From the NCBI GenBank assembly GCA_003971905.1, contig RSEE01000043.1, forward strand, positions 248,001 through 312,000: DNA of 64,000 bases, read 5' to 3'. This stretch comes from Moniliella sp. 'wahieum'. Taxonomy: Eukaryota. Position 1 is the first letter of the stretch; each line of letters begins with the position of its first letter. Below are positions 1,842 to 61,009 of this stretch, piece by piece. The notes under the pieces are model-generated. The model was not told the DNA's origin and searched no databases. It was given only the letters and a program-made list of their open reading frames with translations. The position numbers and the translations under genes are program-made.

Positions 1842-2863
1842 ATGGTTCTCTCTTGGCTCGCCACCCGCGACTCGGTCGAAAACAACCCGGTCGCGTCCAA
1901 CATCACCGTTGACTCTCATGGTTCTGACTTTGCTTGGGCCATTTTTGCGGTTCAGACCGTGTCTTCCTCTGTCTATCGTCTCATACATTCTTCTATGTCA
2001 ACCGCGGCAACCGGACCTTTGCCTATCTTGTCGCTGCTGCCTTGGCGTGCAACGCTCTCAACTGGTTTGCCCTTGCGTCCAACCTCGGAGCTGTCCCTAT
2101 CACCGTCGAGTTCCACGCTGGTGGCTGGGCAGGCAATGGCACGGGCCACAACCTGGCTCCTACCCGGTCCATTTGGTACGTTCATAGAGCAACGCCCCCC
2201 CTCCCTGCGCTTCCCTTTGTCTGCTTGATACCGTCCTCATGAGATACTAATCTCAACGCCTGTCCAGGATTTCACGATATGTTGACTGGTTCGTCTCCAC
2301 ACCGTTCATCATCATTGCGATCCTCCTTGTGTCGCCCGTGCCGCTCTCGACAATTTTCATGACCGTGTTTTGGTCCGTCTTTGCCATCCTTTGCGGTCTG
2401 GTGGGCGCCCTAACCTACTCGCAATACAAGTGGGGTTGGTTCGTCTTTGGCGTATGCGCTCTGACGTGGGTCATGTGGGTGTTGTGCGGCCCGGCACTGC
2501 TGGCAGCGAAGAAGTCGGGCAACGATGTGTTTTGGGCGTATGTGCCCATCGTTGGTGCCTTTGGATGCTGGGCCATCCTTTACATTATCGCCTGGGCTGT
2601 TGCCGACGCGAGCAATACCATCTCACCCCAGTGAGTTTGTCTATTACGGTGTTCTGGACCTCATCGCCAAGAGCGTCTGCCTCGTTTACCACGTCTATTC
2701 AGTCTCGGGTGTTGAATATGAGCGCTTTGGTCTCTTCTCTAGCAAGGCGTCTCTGTTCGCCGCACCCGAGGCAGCCTCAGAAGTGGAAGCTACTACCACC
2801 ACCCAAAAGCTCGAGCGGACGGTTACTAGGAAGCAGGTGGAGAATCCCGCCGAAGAGGCTTGA
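1842..2863 (+). CDS. Fungal type-1 (microbial) rhodopsin / opsin-related 7TM protein (Hsp30/Yro2/CarO superfamily) retaining the retinal-binding Lys
   Basis: Stitched translation: MVLSWLATRDSVENNP..HGSDFAWAIFAV..YLVAAALACNALNWFALASNLG..PTRSIW|ISRYVDWFVSTP..GLVGAL..YKWGWFVFG..LYIIAWAVADASN..SEFVYYGVLDLIAKS. Intron 2176-2267 (GTACGT..TACTAAT..CCAG). Apparent 1-nt frameshifts near 1965 and 2630. TGA at 2861-2863. Confidence 0.9.
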
Positions 2864-3165
2864 TTGTATCTCAAAACCTCGACCTCAGTAACCGCGCCCA
2901 ACTTTCTTCTCTATTGGTTTTCTGCGGCATCGCCCCGCATACAGATTTTACACCGTATACCTGCTTGTATATATATGTTGATGATGCGGTGCGGTCGAAA
3001 CGTTCTTTCATTGACCCCACCCAAAGAGTTGATATGCGCTTCTGCTCTTCACCCTGTTCTACATTGAACAACAAGAGTTCATTGTACTATTTGGGTTCAT
3101 TGTTAGGTCTGACGTCGGATGCCTGTGATGGTTCACCTTATCCTGATCATGACCCATATACATCT

Positions 3166-3201
3166 CCTCCTCCCCTCCTCCTCCTCCTCCTCCTCCTCCT
3201 C
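3166..3201. repeat. (CCT)n microsatellite
   Basis: Run of cct/ctc triplets seen directly. Confidence 0.9.
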
Positions 3202-13180: not shown

Positions 13181-16100
13181 CTACACCACCACCAGACCCA
13201 TCACAGTATGGACAGATCCTTCCTCACGCCCACGACCCATTTCGGTGGTGCGACGAAGTGGGAGGCGGATGAGGCGCGTGAGGCGGATGAGGTTCCGAGG
13301 ACGACGGAGGTAGCAAGGATGCAGACGAACAGGACGGCTCCACCGTTTCTCTTCCGCCGCTCCGGCACTCGCAGGACTGATTGGACTCGTGGGACTTGAT
13401 GGGCTCGTAACGATAGGTGGAGGTGGAGGTGGAGGTGCGGATGCAGGCACAGCAGACTGATCCACGTACCCCATCATTTCCCCCCCGTTTGCGCCTATGC
13501 CGCCGGCACGCACTGATTGCGGTCCTGACGCAGGAGCAGCAGACCACCCATGCCCTCCGACCGACGGCGTATCCGTGTAACTGTAGCGCGCATTTCCCGC
13601 CCCGGACACAGGAGGGTACGTCCCACTCTCCCGCCCTGACCAGACCGACATGTGAGACATACGAGAACGCGCCGGTTCCTTGTCCCAGTCTTTCGTCGCC
13701 ACCGGCCAGGCCGGAGTAGAACCCGATACAGAGCCCGATTCAGACGCTGACCTGGACGTGGACCGCGACGTAGACCTGGAAGCGGAGGGCGAGCCTGACC
13801 GCGACGGGTGGTTTGATTCAGGCCAAGAAGGGCGCACGGCATGGGATACAGGACGCGGTGGGCCAGTGCCATTCCCCTTGGCTGCACCGTACACGCGCGG
13901 CGGGGGCCGGGTCGGTGGCACAGCGTGGGAGTCGGTGGCACGGAGGGGAGCCACGCGGGCGGGCGAAGAAGGAGGAAAAGAAGTGAGCTCTGCTGGATCG
14001 CCGTGGGTGGGGACTACTACGACGGTGGTGGGTGTGGTAGTTTGTGGTAGGTGGCGCAGGAGATCGGAGAGGCGGTGCAGCAGGCTGCCCAAACAATCGT
14101 TTCCACAACTGTTTCCCTTGTGGATCGTGGGGGCCTGGGTACGGCCCATGAATTTGCGGGAGCTCGTGGCGCCCATCGAGGTCGTAGAGATTGAGACGGG
14201 TCAATGCGCGTACGCCTCGGACTTGCAGCGGGTACGGATCTTTTCCCTCGGCGGCGAGACAGATGGCTCTGGCTTCCAACGCACGCGCTCTACGAACGCG
14301 TCTGCGCGCTTCTTTTTCCAAACCACGCATCAGTTGTTCATGCACCACTTCCTTCTTCTTGGTCTTGTTCCCGCCAATCCAGATCAACAGACCGGCCAAC
14401 GCGTTGCACGATAACGAGCTGGAAATGATGGCGGCGGTCAAAGCGGTGGGACGGTGGTGGTACTCAATCCCCCACGTCACTCCACACAGACAGATTTGAA
14501 GACACGAATGCAGATCCGACAAGATGACAATCGCAATTGCCAACTTGGCACTAAACGCACGGTGCGTCTCGGTTTCGTGGTACCGATAGTAATTGTGTGC
14601 CGAACGGAATTTGCGCTGCTGGTACACCAGCTGACTTTCTTCCGATAACGACAATACCGCTGGTTCGGCATCCCCTGGCACGGCATAGGCCACACGCCCA
14701 TCTTGCCCTTCTACCATCGCCGCCGCCCCGGCCGCAAGCGCCGTCGCGGCACTCTGCACTCCAGCTGGCGTCGCACTGTGCAACGGTACCACGGTCGCCA
14801 ACCGTGCATCCCCGTCCGACGGCAGCGCAACCACTGCCTCCTCACCTTTATTATCATCCTCAGGAGAGAGGTAGGTGACCTGGGCACCGGGTACGATCTT
14901 GGGGGCCCGATACTCGGATCGTGACCGGACCAGAATGTGGGACCGGAACGCCCCACCCGAAGGGGTAGGCGTAGGGTATCCTTTGGGACTGCCCATGTCA
15001 GAGGAAGGAGAAGTGCCCGTCGTGTCGAGGGGAGGCGAGTCGTGCGTGGTGAGCAGGTGCGGGAGCTGGCCAGGAGGGGCTTGGTATTCTTCCGCGTAAT
15101 GCGGGCGGGGATGGACAATGTGCGTGGGAACGGTTTGAGGAGCAGGCTGAGGCGCAGTGTTCCCGCGGCTATGCTGGGATGTCAACGACTGGACGGTAGG
15201 TGAGTGCGGAGGGTACTGGGTCGAGTCTTGGTTTTCCATCGTCGACTTTCCCAATCCTTCGGGTAGAGAGGCGAGGCCTGTCGGATCCGCGTGAGGGGTA
15301 CGCCTGTCTACGGCCAGTGGGCCGGGTGAGGGGGAGAAAGGGGGGGCGAATGACCAGGATAGGAAAGGCGCTTGGCACTGGGCGGGGTGGAACATGCGTT
15401 TGACAACGTTGGGCTTGTGGGCTGGCGGGTTGGCGAGGTCGACAGCAATGCTGCCGAAGGAGCGAAAGCTGGTCGTTGACTCGGAGGGTGGTGAGGACCG
15501 CGACGCCCCAACTCGGCGACAGGTGACGAGGCCGGATACAGCCGACTGACAGGCGAGGTGGCCGTGCCGTGCGTCACAGCGACCGCGACTGCGGCCGCTT
15601 CCTCTTCTACCTGCAACTCCGCCTGTGCCGCAGTGCCGTGATGAACACGGTCGTGGACACCGGCCGCGTCTTGTGCTTGCTTTTGAGGGTACGATGCTGT
15701 TTGGGAGTCATGGCCGATTTGCGATCAATCTTGTTCTTTTTGGCTTTGGCGTGGGCCTTGACCTTGGCCACTTCGTCCTCCGCCGCTTGAGCTGCTTCAG
15801 CAGGGGGCAGGTGACGCCGCCGGTTCGTGTCGTACAGACGGTAAGCATAGGACCGAGGAATGTCATTATCATCCGGAAGGGGCAAGAGATTCAGCTTGAC
15901 TCTCCGTCGCAGCGCTCGGCGGGCGGAGCAAACGTGATGCGGAACATGCGATATGAATCGCGCAGGCGAGAGGGCGCCAGCAAGAAACCAGTCAGGTTGA
16001 ACAGTACACACAAAATCTTATCGATCCGCTCGATCCATACTCGTCGATGGGGCGGATTCCACCAATGCACGATCAAAATGAAGATGGCAATGCCCCAGGC

Positions 16101-17501
16101 GGCCACCAACAGACCATAAAAGACCATCAAAAATCCCAGCGCTGGGCAACGCAAGAACAGATGGAGAGGCTAGGTGAGTAAGAGGGAACAAAAGCACAGG
16201 GAGAGGGTACATACGTGTCCGCAGTACCTTCCAAAACCAATCAGACCACGGCGAAAGCGTTCTCGGGGGGTATGAGCCTCATAATCGCAGCCTCCACTGC
16301 CTCGTCTTCCTCAGCTTGCTTGGGACAAACGTGCCTTTTCTTCCAACCTTTGCGCAAGTAAGGCGGGGTCGCGGGTTGGAACTCTCCTTCCTCCCCGAGG
16401 AAGGAGACTTATCTGGGAGGGAAAATTGGAGTGTATTTCCTTGTCGATGGTCCAATTCAGGATCGGGGGAGGGCAGCATCCCACTTGGCTCGTTGGCCTC
16501 GACAGACAATGTAGGGTAGGGGACCGTCCCAAGTTGCTGGCCGGGCACAATGCCCCCTTGAACTTCGTCGTAAGATTTGCTTGTAGACAGGTGAGTAGTA
16601 GAAACAGGGTTCAGCTCCCAGGTGGCCTTGTCCAACTCCGATGGACTGCCAAAGGTGCCCCACACTCAATTGAAGAGGGTTGCTATAGCCGTGGGGCTGG
16701 GGACGGTGCCAGGAGGGTTCGGAGGTGGTGACACCCAATGGATCGGTTGGATAGGCGGCTACGCCTTCGACCATAGGGGTTAGCGCCTTGGGAGGGGGGG
16801 GTACCACCTTGGGGGAGCCTGGGGGGGCGGCCAGATTGACTCGATGGCCAAGTGAACCAAACAGCGACGCGTGGGCTGGTCGGGCGAATCGTGGCCACGG
16901 CTAAAGGATGGAAGACGGGAGCGAATACGACTGTGGGTGGAGGCGGCGGAGGCGCGGCGGGAAGGAAGGGCGGTGGGAGGGAGATGGGGGCTGCCGGAAG
17001 TCCTGGGAGAAGGTGATGTGGCGCCGGGGCGGGGAGGCGGGGGGGCGTGAGACGGGGACAAAGGATCAATGTGTTCTTCGCTGTCGTCGTGGTGCCCCGG
17101 GGGACAAGGTCGGACCAGGAGGGGATGGGAGGCGGATGAAAAGGAGGAGCAAAAAGGACGCCCTGGATGTTGCTCCAAGTGTTCATCGCCGCATAGGCGG
17201 GGTCCACCACGTCCCACACGTCGGCCTCCTGCGCACGCTGGGCCTCGGCATCGGCTGCAGCCTCGGCGCGGATGTGATTGGAGGCAAGGGCGCGGTCGCG
17301 GATGCCGCGCATGGCCGCGAGGCCGAGGCGGGACGAGTAGCTGGGCGAGACGGCAGCGGGAGTAGTAGCATCGGCGGGAAGAGGGGAATGATCGATGGAG
17401 GGGGCGGACTTGGCGCGGGGGCGGGGGCGGGGCACAGCGAGGGTGTCCGCCGGCGGTGGCTGCGGGGGGGGCTCGACGGGGGGAGGCGATGCGCCCGGCA
17501 T
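13181..17501 (-). CDS. DUF2985-family fungal integral membrane protein
   Basis: Motifs: DVWDVVDPAYAAMNTWSNIQ; FLMVFYGLLVAAWG..WIERIDKILCVLFNLTGFLLAPSRLRDSY; HNYYRYHETETHRAF..DLHSCLQICLCG..GGNKTKK. Intron 16142-16214 (GTATGT..CCAG). Ends approximate. Confidence 0.75.
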
Positions 17502-28988: not shown

Positions 28989-30614
28989 ATGCAGAAGCGC
29001 ACTCGTAAGTCGAGCTCAACCGTCAGCTACAGAGGGAATTCCCCCGACCCTCCACCATCCATGGTCGCATGCAAGCCCGTCGTCATCCTCCGGACATCGG
29101 GTGCGCAGCAAAAAACCCAGGCTTGCTCGGAAACCGACGCGTTCCCCGCACCCCGCCCCTCTGATCAGTCCACCCCAACCCAGCCCCAACCCCAACCCCT
29201 TCCCTGTCTTCTTCCAACCACAGACCACCCACGTTCCGTCTCGTATCCGCTCCACACCGCCCCCTTTCTGTCCGAGAACAAATCCGCCCCGGAGCCACCA
29301 CACCCCTCCAATGTCGTGGTAGAACCTCGGTCTGACCCCGCACCCGCCGCTTCCACTGGGGCCCCCGTATCTCCTCGCCTCCGTTTGCACACGGACCAAC
29401 TTCCTTCTCGTACCCAGCGTGGATCGGTAGCACGCACTCCAGCGGTTGTCGCCCCCGGGATGCCGAGGCAAGCGCGCATACTTCCTTTGGCCACCCAATC
29501 TTCTCAGCTCAAAGACGGTTCCGGTTCCCTCGACCTCACAACGCGGGTAGGAGGTGAGAGGAATGGTAGCCTCGTACCCGTCATGGATCGGGCGTGGATG
29601 CATCTGGGACCAATGGGGTCAAGGGGTCAATGTGACTAATGCGGCAGGTGGGCTTATCAAAAAACGCACTCCCAAAAACAAAGGTCTCCTTCCCCTTCGC
29701 CAGGGCTGGGCGCCCATGGCGGCCTATATAATTATGGCAACACGTGCTACCTCAATCGGTATTGCAAGTGCTAGTACACAGCACCCTTGATTGCACTATG
29801 CCGCGCTGCGCCCTCGATCGAAGGATACAGTCCTTCCCAAGCCTTGGGCGAGTTGGCTGTGTCCATTTGGGCTGGCGGTCCTAATCCCGTGTTGCCCCGT
29901 TCGTTTTATGATCACTTGCCGCCACCCCTCAGTCAGGGGAGACAGGAGGATGCGCATGAATGTCTTCGTCTTTTGGTGGAGGGCATGAGCACGGTCTCCT
30001 CCGATAGAGCCGACGAGGATCCCCATTCGCCTTCCCATCTACCATCCCCCACTCTTCCAGGGCCGCTTCCGGTCAGAGTGACCTGCTCTCATGCAACGAA
30101 TCGTCGGATACGTTTGATGTGTTTGCCGATCTGAGCGTGGACATTGCATTGGGTTGGATCACCAGTGTAAACGATGCCTTGTCCCTATTACTCGGCCTGA
30201 TGTTCTTGCCCGGGGCACGAGTACGTCTGTCCTTCCTGCCACCGGCAATCGGCAGCCACCAAGCAATTTACCATCCACGAAGCTCCCCGGGAGTGCTCAC
30301 CATCCATCTCAACGATTCGATTGGTGGGAACTAAACTCGTTCGTCCCATGTCTTCCCCCGCAGTTGGACCTAAGTCCCTACAGTCCTCGGGAACAGGCGC
30401 ATACGAGTTGTATGCAATTGTGCACCACTTTGGATTGGGTGCCCACAAGGACATTATGTCGCTTCATCCGCGAGATGGAAGAGGCGGGTCGACGGCCTCG
30501 CTGGGTACGCTTCGACGACGAGACCGTGCGTGCTCATTCCTCAACACTGCCGATCCCTCGGCGTATCTGCTCTTCTACCTCCGCCGTCCTGATGGTTGTC
30601 CAACCGCGCATTAG
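28989..30614 (+). CDS. Ubiquitin-specific protease (USP/C19 family, USP36/Ubp10-like), no intron seen
   Basis: Cys box GLYNYGNTCYLN(S)VLQVL (Cys codon 29745); QEDAHECL; FADLSVDI; PGVLTIHL(K)RFDW; His box YELYAIVHHFG..GHYV (~30449); WVRFDDETV; AYLLFY. Several frameshifts; start uncertain. Confidence 0.85.
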
Positions 30615-32067: not shown

Positions 32068-33317
32068 TTAAAGGTTGTCCACAAAAGAGACGCCCTTGGT
32101 GATGTTGCCAGCGAGGTCGGTCACAGCGTGCTGGATCAGACCGTTCTCGTACTCCGACACTGGTCCTAGTGGGTGAATTTTCTCCACCCCGTTTGGGCCA
32201 AGCGTGATGGGCACACTAAAGAACGGGATCTGGGATCCAACGACCTCCTGCACCGCCTTGCCCCCCGCTGGCTCGGATGCTAGATCGACAAACGAGTATT
32301 CCACCGACGTCGGCTTGCCCGCCGCTGCATCAAGCACTGCCAACGCAAAGCGCGCACCAGCATAGGCCATCGCCAAGGTCGCGCTGCCACTGCCATTCTT
32401 GGCCTTGACCACCTCGTCACCACCAAATTGGATCCGATTCGTCAAAGCCTCAATTTTGGCTTGGTCGACCGACTGCAGATGGGGGATCAGTTGATCGGTC
32501 AGTTGCCAGCACCAACATAGCTCAACAAAATCAGACACAACGCACGCAGACTCGGTGTTGTCTGGCTCAAAAGAGGGACAATGGTCAGGCCCGAGTGGCC
32601 TCCAACGACAGGGACCTTGTAGGTCGATGCAGCATGCGGGGCGCCCGCGGCCTCCGAGACAAAGGTACTAGCTCGTACGAGATCCAGAGTGGTCACGCCA
32701 AACAGACGCTTTGGATCGTAGACCCCCCTTTTCTTGAGCACCTCGGCAAACACGGGTACGGTCGAGTTGACTGGGTTGGAAATGACCAGCACAAAGGCCC
32801 TCGGCGCCGCCTCGGCAACACCCTCGGCAATGCCAGCGCAGATTTTCGCATTGACAGTGAACAGGTCGTCCCGAGTCATACCGGGCTTGCGCGGTACACC
32901 GGCAGGGATGACAACAAGGTCCGCCCGTCAACGCAGCTTTGAGACCATCGTTCTCAGGCAGGTAGCCCTGCACCGTCGAGCCCGTGTCAATGTGGGCCAG
33001 GTCCGCTGCAACACCGGGCGCGTTGACCACATCGTACAACGCTAGCTCGGAAATGGCAGGCGAGCTCTTCAATAACAGAGAAAGCGGCTAGCCTGGATGA
33101 GTGGAACGGGTCAGGACACTAGCATGGAGACTCACTCACGAGGTGCGTGGGTAGGGGGGGGGGGGGGGGGGGGGTGGGGGTCGTACCAATACCTCCAGCG
33201 GCACCGCTGCGGACGAAAACGGGCAGAAGAACGGCGGTGGAGAGGAGGTTAGCTAGCGGGACGCGGGGACATGCACGTGGAAGGGGCAAGAACCCACATG
33301 ACGACAGCCTTGACCAT
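32068..33317 (-). CDS. MDH: NAD-dependent malate dehydrogenase with no mitochondrial presequence (cytosolic/peroxisomal type)
   Basis: [110 protein letters not shown]. Two 20-nt exons (33298-33317, 33187-33206). TAA at 32068. Confidence 0.95.
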
Positions 33318-35072
33318 GGCGGAGGGGTGGAGGATCAGAGGGGCAGATGGTGCTGAAGAGGAGGAATGAAGCTGGGACAAGCCAGAAGCGGCTAGCCCCC
33401 CCACCGGAACCGACCGGCTCGGCCCGACTGAGAGGGACGCACAACCCTACTGGCCCCCTTACTGAGGCACGGAGTGCGCTCTAGCGGCCAGCAGTGGGGT
33501 GGGCCGCACCCTGCCACTGTGCGGGAAAGAGCAGGAGGCGACTGTCCACACGCGGGCGGAAGGCGATCGTCGGAAGACCGCACGGGCTCAGCTCAGCGCT
33601 GACTCAGCGCTGAGACTCAGCGGCACAAGCCTTCGCTTCTGCGGCACGACGCGTGACGTGACGCCCCGCGAGATGGACTGCCATCGCGACTGCGTTGACC
33701 CAGTCTTTGGAGGATGGTGACACGCGCGAGGAGGTGGCCGTGGCAGGCCTTTGGAGGAACAGGATGATTGCGTGGACATTTGGAGTAGTACCGGGACCAC
33801 CTGCAGGGCAAGGTACACACCAACGAAAGAGAAAACGAGGGTCGCACACATCCCAGCGAAATGAGGGGAGTGGCGGGAAGAGTTATTGGTCTGCGCACCC
33901 AAAATCCAACTGACCATTAGTATCTTCGTACTCGTTTATTCTCATCGGCGCCATCGACAATCCCTGGTTCTCTATTGGTTAAACCCATTAACCGAGGTAT
34001 ATGTCCAATGCGTTTGGTACTCGATGGCAGTGCAAGCTGTCCCTGTAGCGCATCACGGTCAAAGCCCTGTTGCTTGAGCCAGTTGCCCACCCAGGCTCCT
34101 TGAACCCCCGCTGTTTTGGGGCGATGCCCCAATCACGCCATCCTGCATGATACATCACCCCGGTACCCTCGATTATATAACTTTTCATCTCAGAGCATCC
34201 TGTACCTCTCCTTAGAACCACCACCTCCATTCTCTCCTTCAGCACCCGCGGCGATGGACCATGTAGGACCCGAATATCCCCATGAAATGACGTTGCCCCG
34301 CTCATTGCCCCTCAGCTGAGGCTCAGCGCCCTCAGCTCAGCGCATCGCGGGCCGCAAGAAGCTGGTGTTCTGGTGATAGATCCAACCGCGGGCATATTGT
34401 CCACCCGAATCAGCTCCTTGACTTTGAGCAGCTCATCAGCGACCCAAGGATGCTGCGGGGCATGTAGAACGCTTGCATGCGGGACCATAAACCCAACGCA
34501 GCAATGACACGCCACAAAAACCCAGGGCGTTCTCATCATGCCACGTGATTAATGATTGTACAACACGAAAGTGTATTGTAGGGCCAAGACCACATTAGAT
34601 CAGTCGGGGCGGCAGCGGCCTCCCGCCACTGCCTCCGGAGCCACTTCAGTAAACGTTCAGCAGGCGGATGAGCACCAAGCGCCTCCTCATCGACCTCATC
34701 AATTAATTTCCTCTGGTGTGGGTGAAGCCATTTGGGTCCAGGAGGATTCGGGTGGCGGAATGCGTGTTGGGCAATTAGAAACGTGCAGGCGGAATTGGAT
34801 AATCAGAGCTACGGTGCGTGTATATCCCTGCGCGAGCAAGCAAACGCTCACATTGCAACTCGTAGGCCCAAGGACTTCAGCCTTCGACCACTCACTCATA
34901 CCTGGGATGACACGTAACGCGTAACGCGTCCCGGCGTCAACCTTGCCAACGACTGTTTTGGTATGCCTCCGCAATCTGTTGAGTCAAGAACCCATCAGTC
35001 AGAGAGTGAAAGGATTGCGCTCGGATCAAACGAAAACGGGATGACTTCGTTTCAAAGAAGAAGGAAAAAATA

Positions 35073-48171: not shown

Positions 48172-48608
48172 GGACGCTGGATGCACACACACAGCAGACC
48201 TCCGCAGGGGCGGCAGTGGAGGCGGCGGGCGAGGCGCACTGCGGGGCGTGGCGCCGCCTGTCAGGGATGCGGTGAGCCTCACCCTTGTGCGGCCACGAGT
48301 GTGCTCCAGTGCCCTCGGCGCACTGCGTCGCACGGCGCTGCACTGGCGGAGGCGGAGCGACAGGCGGAGCCACAGCGACGATCATCCGTCGCGCATCACC
48401 CACCATCCGTCCACAGCCCGCAGCAGCCCTCCAGCGTGGCATACCATGCACCCCATTCCGCGTCTCCGTTCCGCCGGCCACGTGGCCGCGCCGCACCGGC
48501 CAGGTGCTAGGGTTAGGCTTGTTTAACATGTAACACTCCGTCCCGTCCTTCGCCTCTCCGCCACCTCCCCATCCTCACGCTCCCCTGCGCCAGCTGAGGA
48601 CCGCCGCC

Positions 48609-49963
48609 ATGGACGTGCTGTGCGTCCTTACCCCCCTATCTCTTGCCGCCCGCGCTGATGACCCCCTCCCCTCGCGCCAGGAACCAGATCCCCCCCGTTA
48701 CGCGCGCCATGCTCGGCATGGTGGCTCTCGTCACCCTGACGCCCCTGCTCAAGCTGTCTGACATCCGCACGTGGTACTTCGACTGGTTCCGCGTGCGCTA
48801 CGGATGGGAGCTGTGGCGCCCTTGACTGCCTTCTTCTATGCCGGCAGCGACATCAACATGCTTATGAACGCATTTTTACTCTACAACAACAGCAGGGACC
48901 TGGAAAATGGCCGCTTTTTCCGCCGCCGCTCCAGCCAGTATGCCTGGTGCCTGCTCGTCAATGCGGCTGCTATTGTGGTCTTGGCTGCCCCGCTCCGCGC
49001 CCTTTCCTCTTTGGCCCGCTGATGAGCCTTCTGATGGTACGTTGACACGCACGCTCATTCTCTCTGGCAGGGACTAACCTGCGCCCCTCCCGCCCCCGCA
49101 GTACCTGTGGTCGCGCGACAATTCTACCGGGCAAGTCAATTTTTGGCTTCCTCACCTTACCCGCGAAGTATCTTGCTCAAGCCCACCTGTTTCTCGACCT
49201 GATTACCACCGGCCTCGGTGGGGCGGTCACCAGTGCCACTGGCATTCTTGCCGGCCACGCATGGTTGCTCCTCGAAGAGTTTGCTTCCAATGACGATCCC
49301 CGCGCTCGCCGCTCCAGCCTCACTGCGCTCGGCCTCCTTCTTGCCCGCGCCCTCACCCAGCCACCTCGGTTGCTGCAGCGTATCCTACCTGACAGCACCG
49401 ATCCCACCACGGGTACTCCCACACCCACGGGCGGTCCAGGGCGGCGGACCCAGTACGGTGCCGCGTACGCGCCCGTGATGGGGCATGGGGACAAGGTGGG
49501 CATTCGCTCGCTTCGGCCTCGGCTGGTTCCCAAGGCAGCAGTTTTGTCCCTTCTTTCCTTCGTGGCTGGGGTGGTGGGAGCGGGGGGGCTACGACGCCTA
49601 CTCCATCCCGCGATGCGCTCTTGGCGGCGACCGAGCGACGATTGCGTGCCCAAGCGGGCAAAAAGCATTGTGGGTCGCAACCAAAGCTCGCCGCTGCAGC
49701 CGCCCGAGGGGCAGGTATGACCACGCCACCGCCACAGAGGGTGCGCGTACGACGGCCACTTCCACCCCTCGCACCACCTCCGGGGGCATTCACACTCTCC
49801 GCCCTTCCAACCGGACGATCCCAGCCTGCCAATGCCAATCGTCGGGCGGTTCGGTCGCGGAGCAACGGAGAGGCATGCACGCCAGCCTCGGACTCCCGCA
49901 CGAGGGAGAGAAGCAAGAGCTGCCGATCCTTGGCCTGGCCAAGGACAGCGTCTGGGCGAGTAA
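48609..49963 (+). CDS. Derlin (Der1/Dfm1 rhomboid pseudoprotease, ERAD) with C-terminal SHP box
   Basis: QIPPVTR..WELWRP(L)TAFFY..LYNNSRDLE..YAWCL..YLWSR..PAKYL..GILAGHAW; ends WPGQGQRLGE* (TAA 49961-49963). Introns near 48620-48680 and 49037-49102. Confidence 0.88.
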
Positions 49964-50203: not shown

Positions 50204-52599
50204 TCACCTCTTGAACTTTTCAGTGGATCCGTCTTTCGGGTGGGCGCAGGACGTCCGTGTCGCGACCGCGACCGCGACCGCGCCCACGCGCCGCACCGCC
50301 GCGAGGATGATTAAACTTGGGGACAAAGCCATCGAGCGTTTGCGTGGGTCGCTGGCCGAAGCGGAAAGGGAAGGGCCGAAGACGAGGAGGGGGCAAACGC
50401 CTTGATGCGAGGCATGAGGTAATCGGGCACATGCTCAAATGGTGTTGCCAGCCAACGCACGTCGTGTGCGCTCATGTCAGCCGTTTGAGCTTGGAGATAC
50501 TCCAACTCTTGCGGATTGTCGTCCCAGTACGAAGCCAGTTTCTCATTGTGCAGCATCTCCCACTTGAGCTCCTGTACGCGCGCCTCCTTGATCGCAGAAG
50601 CGTTGATGGACTTGAGGGCATCAGCGGTACGGTACTTGAACCCCTCGATTTGCGCAGGGTCGTACTCCCATTCAGGAATCTTGGCAGGGGAGCGTTGTTG
50701 TGGTTGGTGGGTTGTTCCGATGTTTGTGGTTGAGATTGGGGGTGGGGGAGCGTAGGGTCCTGAGCCTCTGCCTCTGTATGCGCCGCCGCATACGCCCGCT
50801 GGATGGTACGCCACACACGCGCATCGGACCGGGCCGTGGGGGATGCCACTGTCCTCGCCACCCGGGGCGAGAGGAAGTCTGACTTGCCCACCACGCGCGG
50901 GGAACGACAAAGCTCAGTGCGGTACCGGTGTTGCCCGCGCGGGCAGTGCGACCGATCCGATGATGTAGGCGGTAAGCGAGGTGGGCAGGTCAAAGTTGAT
51001 AACGCAGGCGACCGCGAGGAAATCAACACCGCGAGCGACACTGTACTCGGCTTTGGCCGCTTGATGGTCGGCCACGCGTTCTTCGCGCGTTTTGCGAGCC
51101 TTTTTTCTTTTTCCCTTCGCCTCAGCCGAGGCAGAGGCCAACTTTCGCTTCTTCCCCCGCGTCCTCCTCTTCATCGTCTTCACCGTCGTCACCGTTTTCG
51201 CTCCCCTCCTCGGCCTCTTGCTCTGCCTCGCTCTCCTCCTCTTCGTCCTCATCGTCCTCCTCCTCATCCTCCAAAGCATCTTGTTGGTCGGTAGCGATCA
51301 TGACACCCAACGCGCCCTTGTTGAACGCCTCAACCTTCTTGGCACGTGAGGTGAAGGGCAATTCATGGTTGAGCACCGCGGTGCGCGTAATGCCAAACTG
51401 CTCCAAGAACAATTTCAACCGGTACCCGCGATCGATCGAGTTGACAAAGATGAGCACCTTGCCCCGCACCAAGCGCAGTTTCAAAATCACGTAGAGCAAC
51501 AGGAACTTTTCGGCTTCGGACACGTGGACGCTATACTGGAGCAACTGGGGCCCCTCAGGCCCGTCGTGCGAACCACCACCAAGAAGGCTGTCCTTGATGT
51601 CCAGTTGGATGGGCGTGCGGAGCAAGAGCGATCGCAATCGCTCCACGTCGGGGGTGAGGGTGGCAGAGATGAGGAAGCGTTGGACGCCACCTTTGGCCTC
51701 GGCGGCGGCCCACCAGGACGAGGCGAGCACGTGCGAAACAAACCCGCCCGAGCTAGCGTCATCCGGGGAGGAAGGGAGTAAGTTGTGGCCATAGGACAAC
51801 ATCAAATCTGCCTCGTCAATCACCAACGTTTCCAGCTGCGTCAGGTCCAAGCCGCCACGAGGGGTGTGAGACGAAGAGGACGGGGTGACAAAGTGCATCA
51901 GCCGCGCCGGCGTCGCAACAATCACATCGGGTTGACCTTCCGCCAACACCATCCGAAGCACCTTGGCCGAAATGTCCTTGGCAATGCTGAGCACTTCCAG
52001 GGGGGCCTCGCCCACGCCTGGGTCATCGACGACCGACTTGAGGTCGTGGTGTGGGTGGCGGCTACGCGGGTCCGTCTGACCGCCATGGGTCGACATGGAG
52101 CCCGGAACGTTGGAGAAGGCGGCTGCCGAGCGCCCGCCACAGGCGACGGCCAACGTGTTGAGTTGGGATGTGACTTGCTCGGCCAGTTCCCGGGTAGGAA
52201 CAAGGATCAAGGCGCGGGTCACCTTGCTCTGCCCCGGAGCGGCAGCCTTGGCATCGAGGATTTTTTGCATGACGGGCAGGCCGTAGGCGAGCGTCTTGCC
52301 ACTGCCCGTAGGGGCACGGACAAGAACGTCGCGCAAGCCAAAGGACGCAGCGGGGGCGGAGGCATCGGTCGTGTCGGTGGGTGCAGCAGTTGCGCCGAGA
52401 GCGACGGGGATGAGGGCGTTCTGGACGGGGGTAGGGTAGGCAAAGCCGAGTGCAGACAGGCCGCGGAGCAGCGCGCGTCCAGGATGGAGCCCATGGCCGC
52501 AAAGGTGGGCCGGGTGGAGCGGTGCTTGTGCTTTGCGTGTGCGACGGGCGCCTGCGCCAGCGGCGCCATGGCGGGATCCGAGGCGGCAGCGGCAGCCAT
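50204..52599 (-). CDS. DBP9: ATP-dependent DEAD-box RNA helicase DBP9 (DDX56), 60S biogenesis
   Basis: Q motif PTPVQ; APTGSGKT; PTRELAEQ; DEADLMLSYGH; SAT; EKFLLLYVILKLRLVRGKVLIFVNSIDRGYRLKLFLEQFGI; EYSVARGVDF; IKEARVQELK; HVPDYLMP; DPLK. Confidence 0.95.
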
Positions 52600-53626
52600 C
52601 GGGAGGGAAATGGGGTGGTGGGGGTGGTGGGGGTGGTGAAGGCAGTCGAGTGAGCCTCTCCGCCGAGGCCCGTCGTTTGCTTCCCAAGGCGGCCGGCAAA
52701 AATATTATGGCTGAGCTAAGCCATCGGTGCAACCGCGGCACGAGGGTCTTGTAGCAGAGTAGTGATCATCGATCATCGGTCCTCGATCAGATTATATTCT
52801 TTTTTCTGTCTGGCGCGTGTAGTCGGGGCAAAGGGAGCAGGCCAAGGTTGCTGCCCTCCATCGTTCACCAAGGAAGGGGCGAAAAATACACTCGGATACC
52901 CATCTGGTAGGAAAGGAAGGTTCAAGGAGTGGCGTGCCCGTAGGAGGGCTTGAGATGAAACGAGCAATGGATACTTTTCATCCTCAAGGGCCTCAAGCTT
53001 CACAAGCCGCCGAGTCGGCGTCCCTCAAGCTTCATCCTTCATCAGTCTGAAGGATGTCATCGTGTCATAATCCAGTTACTATATATATGGGGGCAGCTGT
53101 CCGTTCTTTGTGCCATTCATTCCCTGGCTCAGTCCCCAATCGCTCACCAGTCCCCCCGTCCACAATCAGGTGCAGAGGTACTAATATGGACGCTTTCCAC
53201 CCTGAGGCTGCGAGTGGAGACCAAGAGGAAATCGTGCAGGGGTAGAACGCTGAAGCGAGAGTGGTCCAAACCCCCATCAATTAATAGTGAAGAGCACATC
53301 AAGTGCCTACTGGTTGGCTTTGTCTCCCTCAGCCGCCCGACACCCACCCTTGACGCATGCGATCGGATATGTAGCACATGTGAAATGAGATGGACAAAAC
53401 CCAAAGATCTATACAACCCTTCGCCCCGAGCCAACTCCAGACTGAAAAAAGAGGGCCCACTCGGTGTGTGCATTCAATTCCGATACGACGAAACGTGGGT
53501 CGGATACCGTGCAAGGGTACGTAGGGTGGATAGATGTAAGAGAAGTAGCCCCGGCGAACACTCTCCACGTTCAACAGCGTCAAGTCACAACTTCAAGCTT
53601 CAAACTTCAAGCTCAAAGACGGCGGA

Positions 53627-56600
53627 TTAAAGTGGGGGGTTGTTGAGGTCCTGTCGCGATCCCGATGCCGATCCCGATGCCGACGGAGTCGCACTTTTCC
53701 GTGGTAGCTCTCGCTGCAAAGGCAACGACAAGGGCAACGACAGCGGCAAGGGCAAAGGCAAAGGCAAGGGTGGCCTAGAAGAGGGAGGAGCAGGAGGGAC
53801 CCCCGTCGCGAGCGAAGAGGTAGGTGGGGTGGTGGCTAAAGTTGCAGTTGCAGTGGAAGGTGAGGCTGAGGCTGAGGTTGAAGCTGAGGTTGACCTGCGT
53901 GCCACCCTGGGCTCGACAACCAACGAGCGGCGGTAGAGGCGATCGTCATGGGCGGGTTTGCCACTCTGCGGCGCCAAGCGAAGCGAGGTGGTCAACCATG
54001 CTTGTACCTCGGTCTGGGCTTGCAACGCATACACCTTGACACACGGTGGGACCAACCGATCTAGGATCTTGACCGCATTCGCGTACCGAGCCCAGTTGAT
54101 CAGCCGTGTGGTGCTCGGAGCGGGCTCAGTGGTGCGTGACTGGGGGTGAGGGTTAGGATGAGGGTAGGGGCGCAACAATGGTCCCGAACCCCGAGCATGA
54201 CGGAAAGGTGCGTTGCCCTCGAGGGCAAATGTGAGGTCGGTGAGGGCGAGGCCGACATAGGGCAAGTACGGAGTGCCGGCAGCGATGGCCTGGTCCAGTC
54301 GAGCGCGGTAGGCAGCGTAGTTACGAGCTGGGTCGACCAGTGCCGCATGGTCCGCAGCCTTGGCGGCCCATTTGGGCGGCAAGGCTGTCCAAGTCTGCTT
54401 CAAGCGACGCACCGCCGCGCTATCCAGTCCGCCTTGCAGAGCGAAAAAGACGTGCCAGTTGTTGAGCCGCAAACAGCGCTGCGGTCACAAGAGCCAAGAG
54501 GGAAAAGGGAAGGAGTGTCAGTCGTGCGTCGTCTGGGATGGAAGAAGAAAACGGAGGAAAAGGCGAAGGGAGGGGAGGAAGGGGGGGGGGGAGAAGGGCG
54601 TACGTCGGCTATTTTGATAAAATGTCGCAACACAGCCAGTCGTTCCCGTGCCGAGTTGGGAGAGAGGATGGAATGGGCGACCCAACCGACGATCCGATTG
54701 CTCAGGGTGGACAAGGCAGCGAGACCGGTGGGCCCCCAGTCGGCCAAAAGGGAGGAATAGGAAGACGAAGAAGGAGGAGAAGAAAATAAAGGAGAAGGAG
54801 AATGGCAAGAGCCAGAATCAGAAGAAGACGATGAAGAGCAAGGTAAGGAAGTAGAAGAGGAAGAGCCTTGGCATGGCGGACCTGGCCGCCACCACCCTCG
54901 TCCGCAGCGGCCGGACCAAGCGTTCGTTCAGTTGACGAGCACCGGGTCGGAGTCCGGCCCAAGGTGAGAAACTCGTCGGGCGTTATGGTCGCGTACAACC
55001 GACTGGCCAGGACGGTCAACTGTCGTGCCGTCTCAGCAGCCTTGACATCCACCACGTTCCATGCGCCTCGCCAGGCCCGACTCACGTCCCACACCTCCCA
55101 CCCAGCGGGGTGGAGAGGTAAGAACCGCTCGGGATCCACGGGCGCGTATAGAGCTTCTCGATGCCGGCCGTAGCGCCAGCCGAATCCCCAGCGCCAAAGC
55201 GGCAGGATCGCGTCGGATCGTTCGTTGAACCAGCACATGGCCTGGGAGCGGGGCAACCAACTGCATAGCCACCCGATCGGACCCGGTGGATCGCCGTGCC
55301 ACGAGCGTGGCTAGCTCGTCGTCATTGGTGTCCCGCGCCAAGAGGCTCAGGAGGGTGAGAGCCGGTCGGTCGTGCAAGGGGGACCAGTAGATGTCCGAGA
55401 GCCACAGGCGAGCAAAGTGGAGGAGATGCGCACGGCGCGTGTGGCCCTTGGCGCCGGGAGGGCAGGAGGTAAAGCGCTGGTACAAGGTTTGGGCCAGAAT
55501 TTCGGGTGTAGAGAAGAGGCATAGTACGAGCAAACGTATGTGCCATTGTGGGTGGCGGATCGCCCTGGTCGGGGGTGAGAAGGGCAACCAAGGCAGGCAA
55601 GGTGCCGCCTAAGAGCAAGCCATCGGCGTTGCGGACCACGTCCGTTGTTCCTCCGGCTTCCCCGCCAGTAGGGGGAGACTGGAGTTGAGCGGAAGAGTTG
55701 GCTCGAGAGCGCAGGGGCGGGCTGGTAGGTCCTTCAGATGTCCCGAGCAACCCCGACGACGAAGTTCGTTTTCCGGCAAATACAGTGTCGTTACTTGCGT
55801 TGCGCAGGGAAAAGAACAGAGACGAAGCCGAAGAGGAACCCGGGCTAGGAGGGAGCGAAGGCCGTGGTAACAAGGTGCGGTCCCTCGTCCCAGGCGATGA
55901 GAAGGGAAGGACAGGGTCCAACGGGTCGAGGGATGAGTGGATCAGATCACCCGTCGAGGACGCCTCGCCGCACACGTGGGATCGAGGCAGGGCAGAGAGG
56001 CTGCCGGTGCGGTGCGACGTGCGCGGAGGGGGGGCCGCAAGGGAAGCCAGACTGGCCGAGGAACGGAGCATAGTAAAGCTGGCTACTTTGCGAGTAAACG
56101 CCGAGAAGCGCGATCGCGAGTCGGATGATACGGAGGTTGGGGTGGTGGTCTTTCGTAGCAGGGTGCTGTCAGCGCGAGCATCTTCCGAGGCCCCCAAATC
56201 GGTACCTGGCAGAGACCTTACCGGCTCGTCGGGCGCCGGCCCAAGACTCAGGCGCTCTACCCCGAATGCGGTGCGTTGGTTAGGAGGGAGTGGTAGGCAG
56301 CTGGAGGGGGAGAGAAGCATCGTAGGTCGCGAGAGCCAAGGCCGCACCGATCAGCTCCTCTCCTGCCCGTGCCAGAGCAGATCCGGCAGCCAAGGCGGGC
56401 GCAGCGGCGATTGCCGCCTTCTCTGCTTCGGACCGGGGGGGCGTGTCGTCCTCCTCCTGTTCTTCCTTCTTCTTCTCCTCCTCGTTCTCACCCAAGGGCG
56501 GAGAAGGAGAGGTGACAGCACGCACGGATGCAAGAAAGTGGGAAGAAGCCAAATAAAACTCATCGCGTGCCGAAGTGAGACGAGCCAAAGCGTCAGGAGC

Positions 56601-58126
56601 AGATGAAGAAAGAGATGGCGATGCCGAAGTGAGCAACGCTTGTACGATGCTAGCAAGGGTGCGCTTTGCTTATGGGTGGCCAAGGTGGCATCCATTACCC
56701 TGACGATCGTTCCGGAAGCGCGTTGGGCCCAAGGGGTGGGGCCCGTGTGTTCAGCCGCACTGGAGGAATGGAGTAGGACAGCCGTACGAAAATTGGTCAA
56801 GGCAGTGCCAAGTTCGTCCCGCACGTACGCCAGCTGGCCGGACACGAGCGCCCCAGCCCGACTCGGCGCGCCCCGAGCCAACGGAATGGAATCTTGTGTA
56901 CGGGCGGGAGACGACGAAGAAGAGAGAAGGAGGAAGGGAGGCGCAACTGTGTCTGGGTCGGATCCGGAGGGCGGTAGGGAGGCTGGGAACGCGATGGAGA
57001 CTCCGATTGGGATGCCGACCGTCCGGCCTGGGCAACCGAGTCGGAACCAAAACTTCGTGCAGCGTGAAGGGTAGGGCCTCTGCCTTTGCGGGCGCCTACG
57101 GCGCGCAGGTCGCCCAAGCTGCGCATCATGGGTTGCCGGCGCGACGCCGCGATGAGCGGTGCAGCATCGACAAGCGCTACCATCGCCGCAGTCACAGCGC
57201 GCAATTGGGCCAGGAGCGGCGCGCAGGGTCGTGTGGAAGGCGGGGCGAGTCTGGGGTGGGCATATCTGATCCTTCATCTGTACCAACCGAAAGGAACGAA
57301 GACGCGCAGGGTCACCAGCAAGACGATCGGAGAGGAAGAGGAGTTGCTGGAGAGCATGGAGGACTTGGGTGCGATGTAGGGCGACGTCTTGGTTGGCCTG
57401 AACGAGGCGGTCGGTACGGTGGAGACAGCCAAGTGCATCCAGCGTATCTTTGGCCTCGGCCACGACCGCGGCGGTGGCAGGGAGGAAGGAGGCAGGGTGA
57501 GCATTGCTGTCCAAGGCGGATTCCAGCTGGTAGCTAGCCTGGACCAAGGCAGGCGGCAAACGGGACCGATCTGGAGTACTAGGTTCCAAGGGCGATCTGG
57601 AGCCCTGCAGGTCCGGCAGGTCCTGTTGCCTCTCCTCCTCCTCTTCCTCCTCCTCCTTATCCCCCCCGCTCCCGGGGGGTGGGTAGACGGGACGCTTCGT
57701 CTGCAGCGGGGATAGGGGTGACGTAGTTGGAGGGGAACCAGCCACGCTGGCCGTTTGCCATCCCATCCCACCAGCCGCTGGTGTGGCAGTGGAAGACAAC
57801 AAGAGGTTCCCCAGCGGTGAGGGGGATGCAGTTGGGCTGGTGGGGGTGCCAGTCATGGAGGGCGACAACGTCGAGGACGGAGAAAGGCTGGGCGGTGGAA
57901 GGAGAGAGGGTGGAGGTGGGGGTATATGTGTCTTCGTGGGGGGCGAGGACATCAATAGGCAGGTCGAGGGAGCGAGAGAGGGGTGATGGGAAGGGAGGTG
58001 CAGGCCGGTGGTGAGAGGGTCCAAGGCGGGACCAAGGGCGAGGGGGGGAGGGCGAGGGCGGGGACTGGGGCTAGGGCTGGGGTTGGGGCTGCTCTGGGCG
58101 CTGTTGGCGGCAGTGGGGTGCAGCAT
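53627..58126 (-). CDS. CDC25-type Ras guanine-nucleotide exchange factor (REM + RasGEF domains)
   Basis: REM: LLGGTLPALVALLT, FSTPEILAQTLYQRF. Catalytic: ETARQLT, RLAVLRHFIKIAD|RCLRLNNWH, AVRRLKQTW, NYAAYR, PYLPYVGLALTDLTFALEGN, LINW. Intron 54479-54603. Confidence 0.9.
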
Positions 58127-61009
58127 TATGCGGAAGGGTGAAGGTTGAAGGCAAAGGGGCGGTGTTGCCCAAGGAAAGAGTGCGCGTGGACGTGGAGGAA
58201 AAGGAGGTGGTGGTGCCAAGAGCAGAGGGGATGCTCCATCGGGGCCAACGCGTGGTGCGAGTGGCAGGGACTGAGTACGCGGACTGTGGGTTAGTGTGAG
58301 GTGCAAGGACTGGGTCTGTATATGAGTTGGCAGGTGTGAGTTGCGAGGCACTAACTGTGACATGTGTGACCGTGTGGCCCAGGCCGCTCAGACAGAGACT
58401 CGCACTTGCAAACAAACACGCCAGACTGCTAGGATGCGCGATGCGGGTGGATGGGTGCGCAGGCGTACGTACTTCTGAGTGCGTGGGTTGCCAGATCCAG
58501 CCAGTGGCGGCCGTGGCGCCCTGAGCGCCTGAGCACGTCGAGAGGGCAGGTCACGGTGATCGGTGAGTACTCAGACTGAGTACTGTGAGTGAGCGGTATT
58601 GCGGGCCAGTGAGTATGAGTGGCTGAGGGGCAGCAAGAAGAGCTTAGAATGGCAGGCCAAACGCCGATGAATGGTGCGGTGGTGCCAACGCGCCAACAGC
58701 GAGCGATGTAGCCCGGATGTATCTCTCTGGGCGTTGGGGGCGTATCGAGTAGCGAGTCTGACAGATCTGATCGATGATCTCAGATCCAAGGGTTGCCTAT
58801 GCCAAGTTCCATGGAGCGTGACGGTGACGAGTGTCTAGGCGAGTGGGCGACCGGTGAGCGAACGAGTGTGGGGACGGGGCAACATGTGGGGCACGGGGAT
58901 AGGCTTCTCCCTCTCTTGAAGAAGGGAGAGGGCATTGGCCTACTACGCCTACGCCCTTTAAGCGCCCCCAAGCCAAGTGCATGTGGGCCATAACACCTTA
59001 CAGCTAAGGCTTCGCGCTTAGCTTAAGAAAGCGCCTCGGCAGCCTCGGCTAGGTCCGACGGACGTGCACTAAACCAGCAGCCATCTTTGAAAACGTTGAA
59101 CGTCGAACTGGTGGATTGGCGCAACCGATCCTTCTTGCAACCCTGTGCTCCCAGGCTTTAGGCCTTGGGCTAAGGCCGCAGGTGGCCACCTCAGACCACC
59201 AGCCACAGCCTGCCACAACCAACACCCCTCTTCTGTCCGTACTACGTATATATACGCGCCCCATCGGAACATATGCAGGATGCGTGAGATCTCAGAGTTC
59301 TCTCAGATGTGCATATTGCATGCCCGCTTTGTATACGAACACCTGGCACGTGATGCATGACGTGCATGACGCAGGAAGCGAGCTGGTAGGTGGAAGAACG
59401 ACGACGCGGACGAGGCTGGAGCTGCTACAGGTGCTGCTAGCTGCCAGCGAGCGAGTTCCCCCAATAAGCAGTTGTCACATCTCAGATCTCTCGGAAATCA
59501 CATCCTCCGATCTCAGACGATGCACGATGTTACATCGCCCGCAGTGAAGCTTGAAGCTTGAAGCTTGAAGCGGTGAAGCGGTGCCGGTGAAGTAGTACCC
59601 AGTACGTAGTCGGTACCCGTACTCGATAGAGTGTATTCTGTTGCATCACACATGTCACACGTCACAGGTACTCGGCAACTCAGTACTACACCAGTACTCA
59701 GTGTGCTCAGACCCCCTCAGCCGCTCAGCGCCTCAGCGCCTCAGCCTCGGCTGGTCATTGTTTTTCTTGGGCTTCCTTGCCACATGTCCCTGCGGTCTGC
59801 TGTTCCAGCTGTCCTGCTGCCCAGCTGTTCTGGGTCCAGTTGTCCCTACGCCCCTCCTTCGCCCTCATCGGCCGAACCTGGTGTGGGGTTCGTTTCAATG
59901 TTATTTTCCAGGCGCCAGGCTTCCATTCAGCCAGTGTAGGCCAGTGCTCCCACTCTTTCTCTCTATTGTAGTCCATGTCAGAGATTGGTCGATCGGGATC
60001 CCTCTCGTTGAGCGTTGAACGTTGAACGTTGAACGTTGAACATTAATTGAAGTGATTCAATATTCAACTCAGTCTGAGCGCTGAGGCTCCGCGCTCGCGC
60101 TCATTCCTCTCATTCACGTTTCACCTCTCTCCTCACGGCCTCCCGCGCCTCCCGCGTGGGGTGCGGCCTCTGGCATGTGGCCCACAAGGCCGGAATACGG
60201 GCCGAGAGAGAGCATGCCCCTCTCCCGCGCGGGAACAGGCCACAGGAGACCAGTACAGACCGGTAGAGCAGGCCATGATAAAGTCTGGACGGCGACGCGA
60301 TCCGAAATACCCCCCATCCACCGTCCAGCGCCAGTCCCCAGTCCCTGATTCCCGATCCCCCAAGTACCAACTACCAACTACCAAAAGTAGTAGGCATATT
60401 AAGTACGGAATCCAAACTCCAACGTATATATAGTTAGCCACCAGTATGCGCACCATGGAATATAGACCCCCAAACTGGGCCGAGTGCGCAGTGTGTATGT
60501 GGACTGGGTGTGAGAACTGTGAGTATACTGAGATGGGGTCGAGGCCAACTGCCAGTAGGTTGTGAAATAAAACAATAGGTATGCTCGCGCGGTATATACT
60601 CCGGTACTCGCGCGTCTCATCGGATCTATGTAGACGGCGTAAGAGCCTTATATAAGGACGGAACACGTAACGCGTGGGGCCTAAAGCATAAGACCGGCCT
60701 AAGAGGCCTAATTAAGGGTCAAAGCTCAAAGACCGACGATATAGGCAACGTGGCACGTTGCACGGCGCATATGTGTCCGAGAGGGCGGAAGAGGAATGCC
60801 GATGAGCTCCTTTGAGCGCGAGCGCGTGTGAGGAGGAATAAGCGCGTGAGGAATGGTAATGAGCGCGTGTGAGGAATATAAGTACTAAGTATTGAAGAAG
60901 AGTTGTGGGGTGTGTTCAACGTTCAGCTGAACGTTCACACGCGCACGAGTCACTTGGCAAGATGATGGATCGATGTGTGGTTGCCGTGCACTCTCGCCTC
61001 TGGGAGAGC

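Follow-up and report, generated by a model that had tools for sequence, protein, structure and literature searches.

A fungal type-1 opsin of Moniliella sp. 'wahieum' with a Schiff-base lysine, no carboxylic proton donor and a remodelled retinal pocket

We have analysed a stretch of 64,000 nucleotides from Moniliella sp. 'wahieum' (contig RSEE01000043.1 of assembly GCA_003971905.1, positions 248,001 to 312,000 of the forward strand), referred to here as the window, in which an initial annotation, made from the letters alone, had noticed a fungal rhodopsin with unusual active-site residues. The opsin gene was confirmed at its annotated place on the plus strand and consists of two exons and one intron, with two breaks of the reading frame (Table 1). 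We compared it with the orthologues P0006–P0012, which are open reading frame (ORF) fragments from Logan contigs found by a word-indexed protein search. P0011 and P0012 begin MVLSWL and MSFAWL, respectively, and are continuous past the end of the first frame segment of exon 1; the second segment, which ends at the TG of the split Trp codon, is 82% identical to P0011 and 65% to P0012. Orthologue fragments extend through the same donor (…SIW/YV…) and the same acceptor as the window intron, and the conserved tail together with a C-terminal EEA, ESA or NEA is common to the window and P0006–P0009. Directly upstream of the ATG lies a pyrimidine-rich (CT) tract of about 200 nt (1640–1841), a (CCT)n microsatellite is found about 300 nt downstream of the stop (3165–3200), and the window also contains a run of 21 G and another of 10 C.

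Table 1. Coordinates of the opsin gene and of the other genes delimited in the window (counted from the first base of the window; residues in bacteriorhodopsin numbering).
Feature	Position	Strand	Description
Opsin exon 1, first frame segment	1842–1955	+	ATG (1842) to Gln codon 1953–1955; MVLSWL…GSDFAWAIFAVQ; N-terminus and start of helix A
Opsin frame break 1	1956–1960	+	five bases (ACCGT) where two codons are expected, i.e., one base missing
Opsin exon 1, second frame segment	1961–2175	+	rest of helix A, helix B (FAYLVAAALACNALNWFALAS) and B-C loop; VFLCLSSHTFFYVNRGNRTFAYLVAAALACNALNWFALASNLG…TRSIW
Opsin intron	2176–2267	+	92 nt, phase 2; GTACGT donor, TACTAAT branch-like site, CAG acceptor; splits a Trp codon
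Opsin exon 2, first frame segment	2268–2628	+	helices C to F; ISRYVDWFVSTPFIIIA…CWAILYIIAWAVADASNTISP
Helix C, RYVDWFVSTPFIIIA	2275–2319	+	R82 (2275–2277), D85 (2284–2286), W86, S89 (2296–2298), T90, A96 (2317–2319)
Helix D		+	W114, S115 (2374–2376), V116, A118 (2383–2385)
Helix E		+	W138 (2437–2439), F141, G142 (2449–2451), A145
Helix F, CWAILYIIAW		+	W181 (2569–2571), A182 (2572–2574), Y185 (2581–2583), I186 (2584–2586), W189 (2593–2595)
Opsin frame break 2	2629	+	lone C following CCC, in place of one codon of the relatives; two bases missing or one extra
Opsin exon 2, last frame segment	2630–2863	+	SEFVYYGVLDLIAK…EEA; helix G, conserved tail VEYERFGLFSSKASLFAAPEA, stop TGA 2861–2863
Helix G, EFVYYGVLDLIAK		+	E204 (2633–2635), D212 (2657–2659), A215, K216 (2669–2671)
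Malate dehydrogenase gene	32071–33330	-	at least three introns; one within-exon frame break at 32922
Der1-like gene (endoplasmic-reticulum-associated degradation)	48598–49290	+	frame switch at about 48819–48823 within the conserved ELWRP/LTAFFYAG
Divergent DEAD-box helicase	51125–52765	-	one ORF of 547 codons (1641 nt), unbroken; negative control
Cdc25-like gene	53630–58550	-	RasGEF in two ORF pieces about 120 nt apart (54403–54927, 53630–54484); SH3 at 57714–57866

The exon 2 piece alone matches the Pfam family Bac_rhodopsin (PF01036) with 42.2 bits and E = 8.6e-11 (gathering cut-off 24.6), well beyond what chance would give, and the orthologue is matched at E = 7.5e-58. The best relatives of solved structure are the proton pumps CsR (6gyh), ARI (5awz) and Leptosphaeria rhodopsin (LR, 7bmh), with E-values of 5e-16 to 5e-14. 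Judged from these matches the locus is a lysine-bearing microbial-type (type-1) opsin, i.e., a fungal relative of bacteriorhodopsin (BR), as the initial annotation had read it: K216 is present and there is no carboxylate at position 96. An AlphaFold2 model of the orthologue P0006, built on an alignment of 50 rows, has a mean predicted local distance difference test (pLDDT) score of 83, with about 91–98 over five helices. It superposes on 6gyh, 7bmh, 5ax0 and BR at 1.3–2.5 Å over 142–157 columns (1.3–2.7 Å when SRII and a xenorhodopsin are included), and its helix F is a single continuous helix. In this model helices C to G take the rhodopsin fold; for the window protein itself we infer helices A and B from alignment to full-length relatives and from hydropathy. 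The best scores in the ESM Atlas were 0.87–0.89, below the useful level, and came from Bac_rhodopsin clusters only.

The numbering of residues was anchored on LR through the HMMER alignment of P0006 to 7bmh, which is ungapped in helices C, F and G. The LR structure paper, in its accessible text, equates D139, D150 and D266 of LR with D85, D96 and D212 of BR, so that LR numbering equals BR numbering plus 54 at both ends of the alignment. The window places D on LR D139, S on T143 and A on D150, and the Schiff-base lysine, within DLIAK and four residues after D212, aligns through P0006 with the lysines of 6gyh, 5awz, 7bmh and 3am6. By this alignment the extracellular, Schiff-base half of the protein is canonical (R82, D85, W86, S89, T90, Y185, W189, E204, D212, K216 and an Asp at the equivalent of E194) and the counterion complex R82/D85/D212 is complete. 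The Asp lies four residues after W189, where LR has an aspartate that is equated with BR E194 in PMC6467936. The cytoplasmic half, on the same alignment, is fully hydrophobic: the carboxylate donor at BR-96 is replaced by Ala, and ungapped alignment to the full-length relative P0013 puts Val at the T46 position, so that the D96/T46 pair becomes A/V. The BR-Y57 position is occupied by Trp, as in P0020; for both helix B positions we presume the BR numbering. The retinal pocket is only partly retained. W86, Y185 and W189 are present, and on the side of the ionone ring the alignment shows a remodelled pocket in which M118 and W182 are replaced by Ala, P186 by Ile, and the Trp of helix F is found one residue early, at 181. 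The position of BR-G116 is Val by ungapped counting, where a change of register by one or two residues is possible (Trp at 114 in the window, Glu at 115 in P0007–P0009). These assignments agree with the D85, S89 and A96 without a carboxylic donor, the E204, D212 and K216 of helix G, and the S115/A118, I186 and out-of-register Trp read earlier by manual alignment. The Gly that had been put at 141 in helix E exists too, at position 142 of the LR-anchored numbering, with Phe at 141.

Both frame breaks fall within exons. Between the Gln codon before the first break and the last base of TTCTTC (1993) the window has 38 nt, vs. 13 codons in both P0011 and P0012, and the reading frame switches from that of 1842 to that of 1937. 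At the second the window reads ISPQ and a stop in one frame and PSEFVYY in the next, where all five of P0006–P0010 are continuous (ISPD[SGA]E). A short intron was ruled out in either case, the gaps of five bases and one base being too small; a GTGAGT at 2631–2636 sits within the conserved SEF codons. Beyond each break the frame is open, for 71 and 77 codons, finishing at the C-terminal EEA of the orthologues. As a control we looked at conserved genes of the same window. Every aligned malate dehydrogenase has a residue between Gly and Asp for which the gene of the window has one base only (32922), and the frame of this gene switches between the residues aligned to 77 and 78 of 1smk. In the Der1-like gene the Pfam DER1 profile positions 1–45 and 45–101 abut in different frames, apparently by the loss of one base beside a CCC run. 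These two genes are otherwise not degraded, and three of the four breaks, opsin and controls together, touch runs of 3–4 identical bases. Since two conserved genes carry the same kind of within-exon break, both breaks of the opsin are probably consensus indel errors of the assembly rather than decay, and the gene is most likely intact in the organism. The contrary explanation is a genuine, recently inactivated pseudogene in which both frameshifts are real. It would account for two frame-disrupting lesions within 930 coding bases in a window where a DEAD-box ORF of 1641 nt is unbroken, and this ORF, together with the small number of control genes (two), also weighs against our view of the breaks as artefacts. 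However, the malate dehydrogenase gene has the same kind of lesion, and so does the Der1-like gene in its most conserved motif; in the opsin there are no further stops beyond the breaks, and start, splice signals and C-terminus are intact. The closeness between the window and P0006 (79–80% identity, tip branch 0.12) equals that among other members of the clade, and we consider inactivation quite improbable. With frame-breaking indels at about one per kilobase in the coding sequence that was checked, motif calls in this genome need polished sequence first.

To place the gene, an exhaustive HMMER search with P0006 gave 550 proteins at E ≤ 1e-3, 163 at ≤ 1e-10 and 6 at ≤ 1e-30. The best 150 of these 550 matches and the relatives found earlier (153 rows) were used for counting motifs, and the 97 rows that fill all key columns, plus the window and three partial orthologues, for a quick tree of 101 rows, in which the window entered as its joined sequence with an X at the break. 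A more careful tree had 53 rows, with a bootstrap that had not fully settled. The window and P0006–P0009 form a clade with 100/100 support in the careful tree and 100 in the Shimodaira-Hasegawa-like approximate likelihood ratio test (SH-aLRT) of the quick tree. Its stem is 1.08 changes per column long in the careful tree vs. tip branches of 0.05–0.30, a contrast consistent with a return of purifying selection. In the quick tree the clade falls in a group of 45 rows (SH-aLRT 97); its sister was left unsettled by the careful tree. All six named members of its half of the tree are Basidiomycota, and the other half has three named members, all ascomycete (Meristemomyces, Geopyxis and Trichomonascus 'Hsp30'). 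The nearest named clusters are those of Acaromyces ingoldii (DTE at positions 85, 89 and 96, with Lys), Sporobolomyces salmonicolor (DTL, Lys), Melanopsichium 'related to YRO2' (P0020; DTS, Lys), Rhodosporidiobolus poonsookiae (DSM, Lys), Phenoliferia, and Abortiporus 'heat shock protein 30', which has no Lys. On these trees the window gene belongs to a new, small, fast-diverged lineage within the basidiomycete group of opsins and opsin-related proteins (ORPs), and in neither tree does it nest in a characterised clade. Within the clade K216 is present in all five members and D85 in both members that cover helix C.

A sister relation to P0014 (DTT, Lys) had an SH-aLRT of 92 in the quick tree and was not recovered at bootstrap ≥ 80 in the careful one. 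P0014, the nearest canonical relative, is deposited with a low-complexity tail of 190 residues straight after …LDVLAKP, which looks like a frame or intron error in the gene model. A tail motif after helix G, approximately [LV]-D-[YL]-x-x-[LF]-x-[LF]-x-S-[GS]-K-[YFVA]-[ST], was observed in members of the basidiomycete group (P0013–P0030) both with and without the Lys; since both kinds have it, the motif predates the loss of retinal binding.

The counts show how far the residue pattern is exceptional. Columns 85 and 216 were both filled in 104 of the 153 rows, and 59 of these have Lys at 216. D or E at 85 accompanies the Lys in 56 of the 59, and D is kept in 7 of the 45 rows without Lys. At position 96 the 56 rows with Lys and D/E85 have D (22), E (14), A (7), T (4), L (3), N (2) and S, M, F or Q (one each), i.e., 20 of the 56 are without a carboxylate and 7 of those have Ala. 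The carboxylate at 96, scored in 56 Lys rows of the tree of 101 rows, changed at least 10 times, and the presence of Lys changed state at least 14 times on the same tree. With such numbers the loss of the donor is recurrent and common in uncharacterised fungal opsins, so that the non-canonical triad reported by the initial annotation is real and yet not the exception it was taken for. What distinguishes the clade is that it has lost W182 as well as P186 while keeping the Lys, and that M118 is replaced. Such a loss of both residues is rarer than donor loss: among the 87 Lys rows with a residue at 186, 73 have P186 and 68 have W182. Among the papers searched, none pairs 'DSA motif' with rhodopsin, and the search gave nothing on the opsins of red yeasts.

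Among the closest known proteins is UmOps3 of Ustilago maydis (UMAG_04125). The accessible text on UmOps3 describes a Ser at the D96 position (residue 129), expression only in planta and no photocurrent in human embryonic kidney (HEK) cells (PMC6467936). The Melanopsichium protein P0020 is probably its orthologue, since both have Ser at residue 129. Like the window protein, these are basidiomycete opsins with the Lys, D85 and a non-carboxylate at 96, and P0020 has in addition the Trp at the BR-Y57 position, the tail motif and a place in the same half of the tree. However, P0020 keeps T89, M118, W182 and P186, and it is only 37% identical to P0006, with which it shares the group of 43 to 45 rows and no sister relation. 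Our literature search found, after 2019, no follow-up of UmOps3 beyond one mention. In the accessible parts of two reports, fungal rhodopsins are classified as NR-like, LR-like and auxiliary ORP-like (or CarO-like), the last being pumps with both carboxylates and Trp or Glu at BR-116 (PMC4295100, PMC6467936). CarO, UmOps1 and PhaeoRD2 are, like the window protein, Lys-bearing and similar in sequence to the ORPs; unlike it they have, as far as the same texts go, carboxylates at 85 and 96 and a photocycle that is fast, and their pump currents have been measured. The window has A96, V116 and a Trp at 114, and thus differs from the CarO-like pattern. The accessible part of a 2026 preprint uses BR-116 as a classifier and includes NTQ and DTQ fungal clades. 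LR/Mac, CsR and ARI, with helices C, F and G aligned without gaps, are the best solved relatives in sequence and fold, but they are proven pumps with DTD triads and a canonical pocket (M118, W182, P186).

We tentatively favour the reading that the intact gene encodes a retinal-binding, slow, non- or weakly electrogenic pigment of a small basidiomycete opsin lineage. The Schiff-base chemistry is probably kept, because Lys (5 of 5) and D85 (2 of 2) are present and the pair travels together across the family. A retinal Schiff base with the D85/D212 counterion would still form, and after its light-driven deprotonation there would be no quick reprotonation from the cytoplasm. P186 and W182 take part in the conformational switch of the pumps, and with neither W182 nor the hinge or kink of Pro-186 the movement of helix F should be altered. 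The outcome would be a slow cycle with a long-lived photoproduct and little or no net charge moved, which would suit a sensor-like or regulatory role, as UmOps3 appears to have, rather than that of a pump of the BR, LR or CarO type. Several observations pull the other way. Nine of about 15 pocket-side positions (114, 115, 116, 118, 141, 145, 182, 186 and 215) vary among the five members of the clade, A215F adjoins the Lys in P0006, and this variation has the look of a chromophore site under relaxed constraint. For helix C the clade offers two sequences only. Nearly all Lys-less ORPs also retain Y185, W189, E204 and D212, so that these four are no evidence of retinal binding and only Lys with D85 discriminates. 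Finally, bacterial DTG and DTS rhodopsins pump protons without a cytoplasmic donor residue, according to the accessible text of PMC8927995, so that the absence of the donor does not by itself exclude pumping. The sensory or atypical-transport function suggested earlier is plausible, but the step from 'no donor' to 'sensory' is unsafe.

The variation in the pocket favours another reading, that of a light-independent membrane protein with a role of the Hsp30/Yro2/Mrh1 type, in which the working retinal pocket has been lost and the Lys is kept because the loss is recent or for some other purpose, the lineage being part-way from rhodopsin to opsin-related protein. W182 and P186 (and M118 too) are replaced in all five members of the clade, the Phe at 215 of P0006 is among the variable residues, Lys has been lost repeatedly in the family, and the very long stem fits a change of function. 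The window also has much in common with the ORPs and the basidiomycete 'heat shock protein 30' homologues: superfamily and tree, Y185, W189, E204 and D212, and, in the basidiomycete ones, the tail motif D-Y-x-x-[LF]-x-[LF]-x-S-[GS]-K, found in Lys-less relatives such as P0023 (of the cluster that includes Abortiporus 'heat shock protein 30'). But the ORPs are without the Lys and mostly without D85, and the window has both. This pair excludes that the protein is itself an ORP (the window and 4 of 4 orthologues have the Lys), and the contrast with Hsp30, Yro2 and Mrh1 drawn in the initial annotation holds. R82, W86, S89 and T90 are intact as well, and the P186A mutant of BR was crystallised (PDB 1q5i, from the entry title), which indicates that losing P186 alone need not stop BR from folding. 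Altogether we find a light-independent role somewhat unlikely, although it is the main rival of the pigment that we favour. An intermediate between rhodopsins and ORPs, also proposed earlier, fits the residue pattern but is not shown by the tree, where the sister of the clade is unsettled.

The complete acceptor and release side (R82, D85, D212, E204 and the Asp equivalent to E194) would suit a light-driven outward proton pump working without a cytoplasmic carboxylate donor, like the bacterial DTG and DTS rhodopsins, which offer the precedent and, as far as their accessible description goes, likewise have no carboxylate at the donor position (PMC8927995). These are nevertheless bacterial lineages, only distantly related in sequence, as are the xenorhodopsins. 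UmOps3, the only donor-less fungal relative tested in the accessible text cited above, was not electrogenic; helix F is without the P186 and W182 of the pump switch, and the surroundings of V46 and A96 offer no obvious path for water-mediated uptake. Pumping of this kind seems to us very improbable. Xenorhodopsin triads lack a carboxylate at the donor position, and the D-S-A triad resembles them, as the initial annotation reports; a xenorhodopsin (7zmy) is also among the solved relatives. An inward pump of the xenorhodopsin kind, or a protein like Anabaena sensory rhodopsin, can nonetheless be given next to no credence and was rejected. Position 212, which is Pro in xenorhodopsins, is Asp in the window, in agreement with the contrast made in the initial annotation. 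The match to the xenorhodopsin is at E = 7e-8 vs. 5e-16 for CsR, eukaryotic pumps and basidiomycete opsins are closest in sequence and structure, and both the intron and the orthologues of the gene are fungal. A more adventurous version of the pigment that we favour would be a new functional type, in which helix F is re-registered (Trp moved from 182 to 181, and the kink of Pro-186 absent) and M118A has widened the ionone pocket. It would still bind retinal or another polyene aldehyde of the carotenoid-rich basidiomycete yeasts and to signal through the conserved cytoplasmic tail V[DE]YERFGLFSSKAS rather than to transport ions. We regard it as distinctly unlikely.

For the rest of the window, Pfam was run on 307 further ORF translations (sets of 108, 79 and 120, the last pre-filtered by codon-position GC), giving only malate dehydrogenase, DEAD-box, RasGEF, SH3, DUF2985, a weak UCH and DER1. 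None of these 307 ORFs gave a carotenoid or retinal gene, in a scan that misses short exons and is not exhaustive. Between 3500 and 32000 (about 28 kb) some 100 long ORFs (≥ 127 aa, including ones of 629, 417 and 413 aa) had no Pfam match at E ≤ 1e-3, and the shorter ones gave only DUF2985 (15894–16169, minus strand) and the weak UCH match (29775–30131, plus strand). With a G+C content of 58% many of the long ORFs could be spurious, and introns or indels may divide the real genes. The SH3 of the Cdc25-like gene is in a different frame from the overlapping ORF of 678 codons (56354–58387).

Few fungal rhodopsins have been studied and nearly all of them are DTD or DTE pumps, while the donor-less example, UmOps3, is without known function. 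The lineage described here offers a natural experiment on the residues that a eukaryotic rhodopsin requires for binding retinal and for pumping. It also bears on the origin of the Lys-less opsin-related proteins, in a family where the Lys has changed at least 14 times among 101 sequences.

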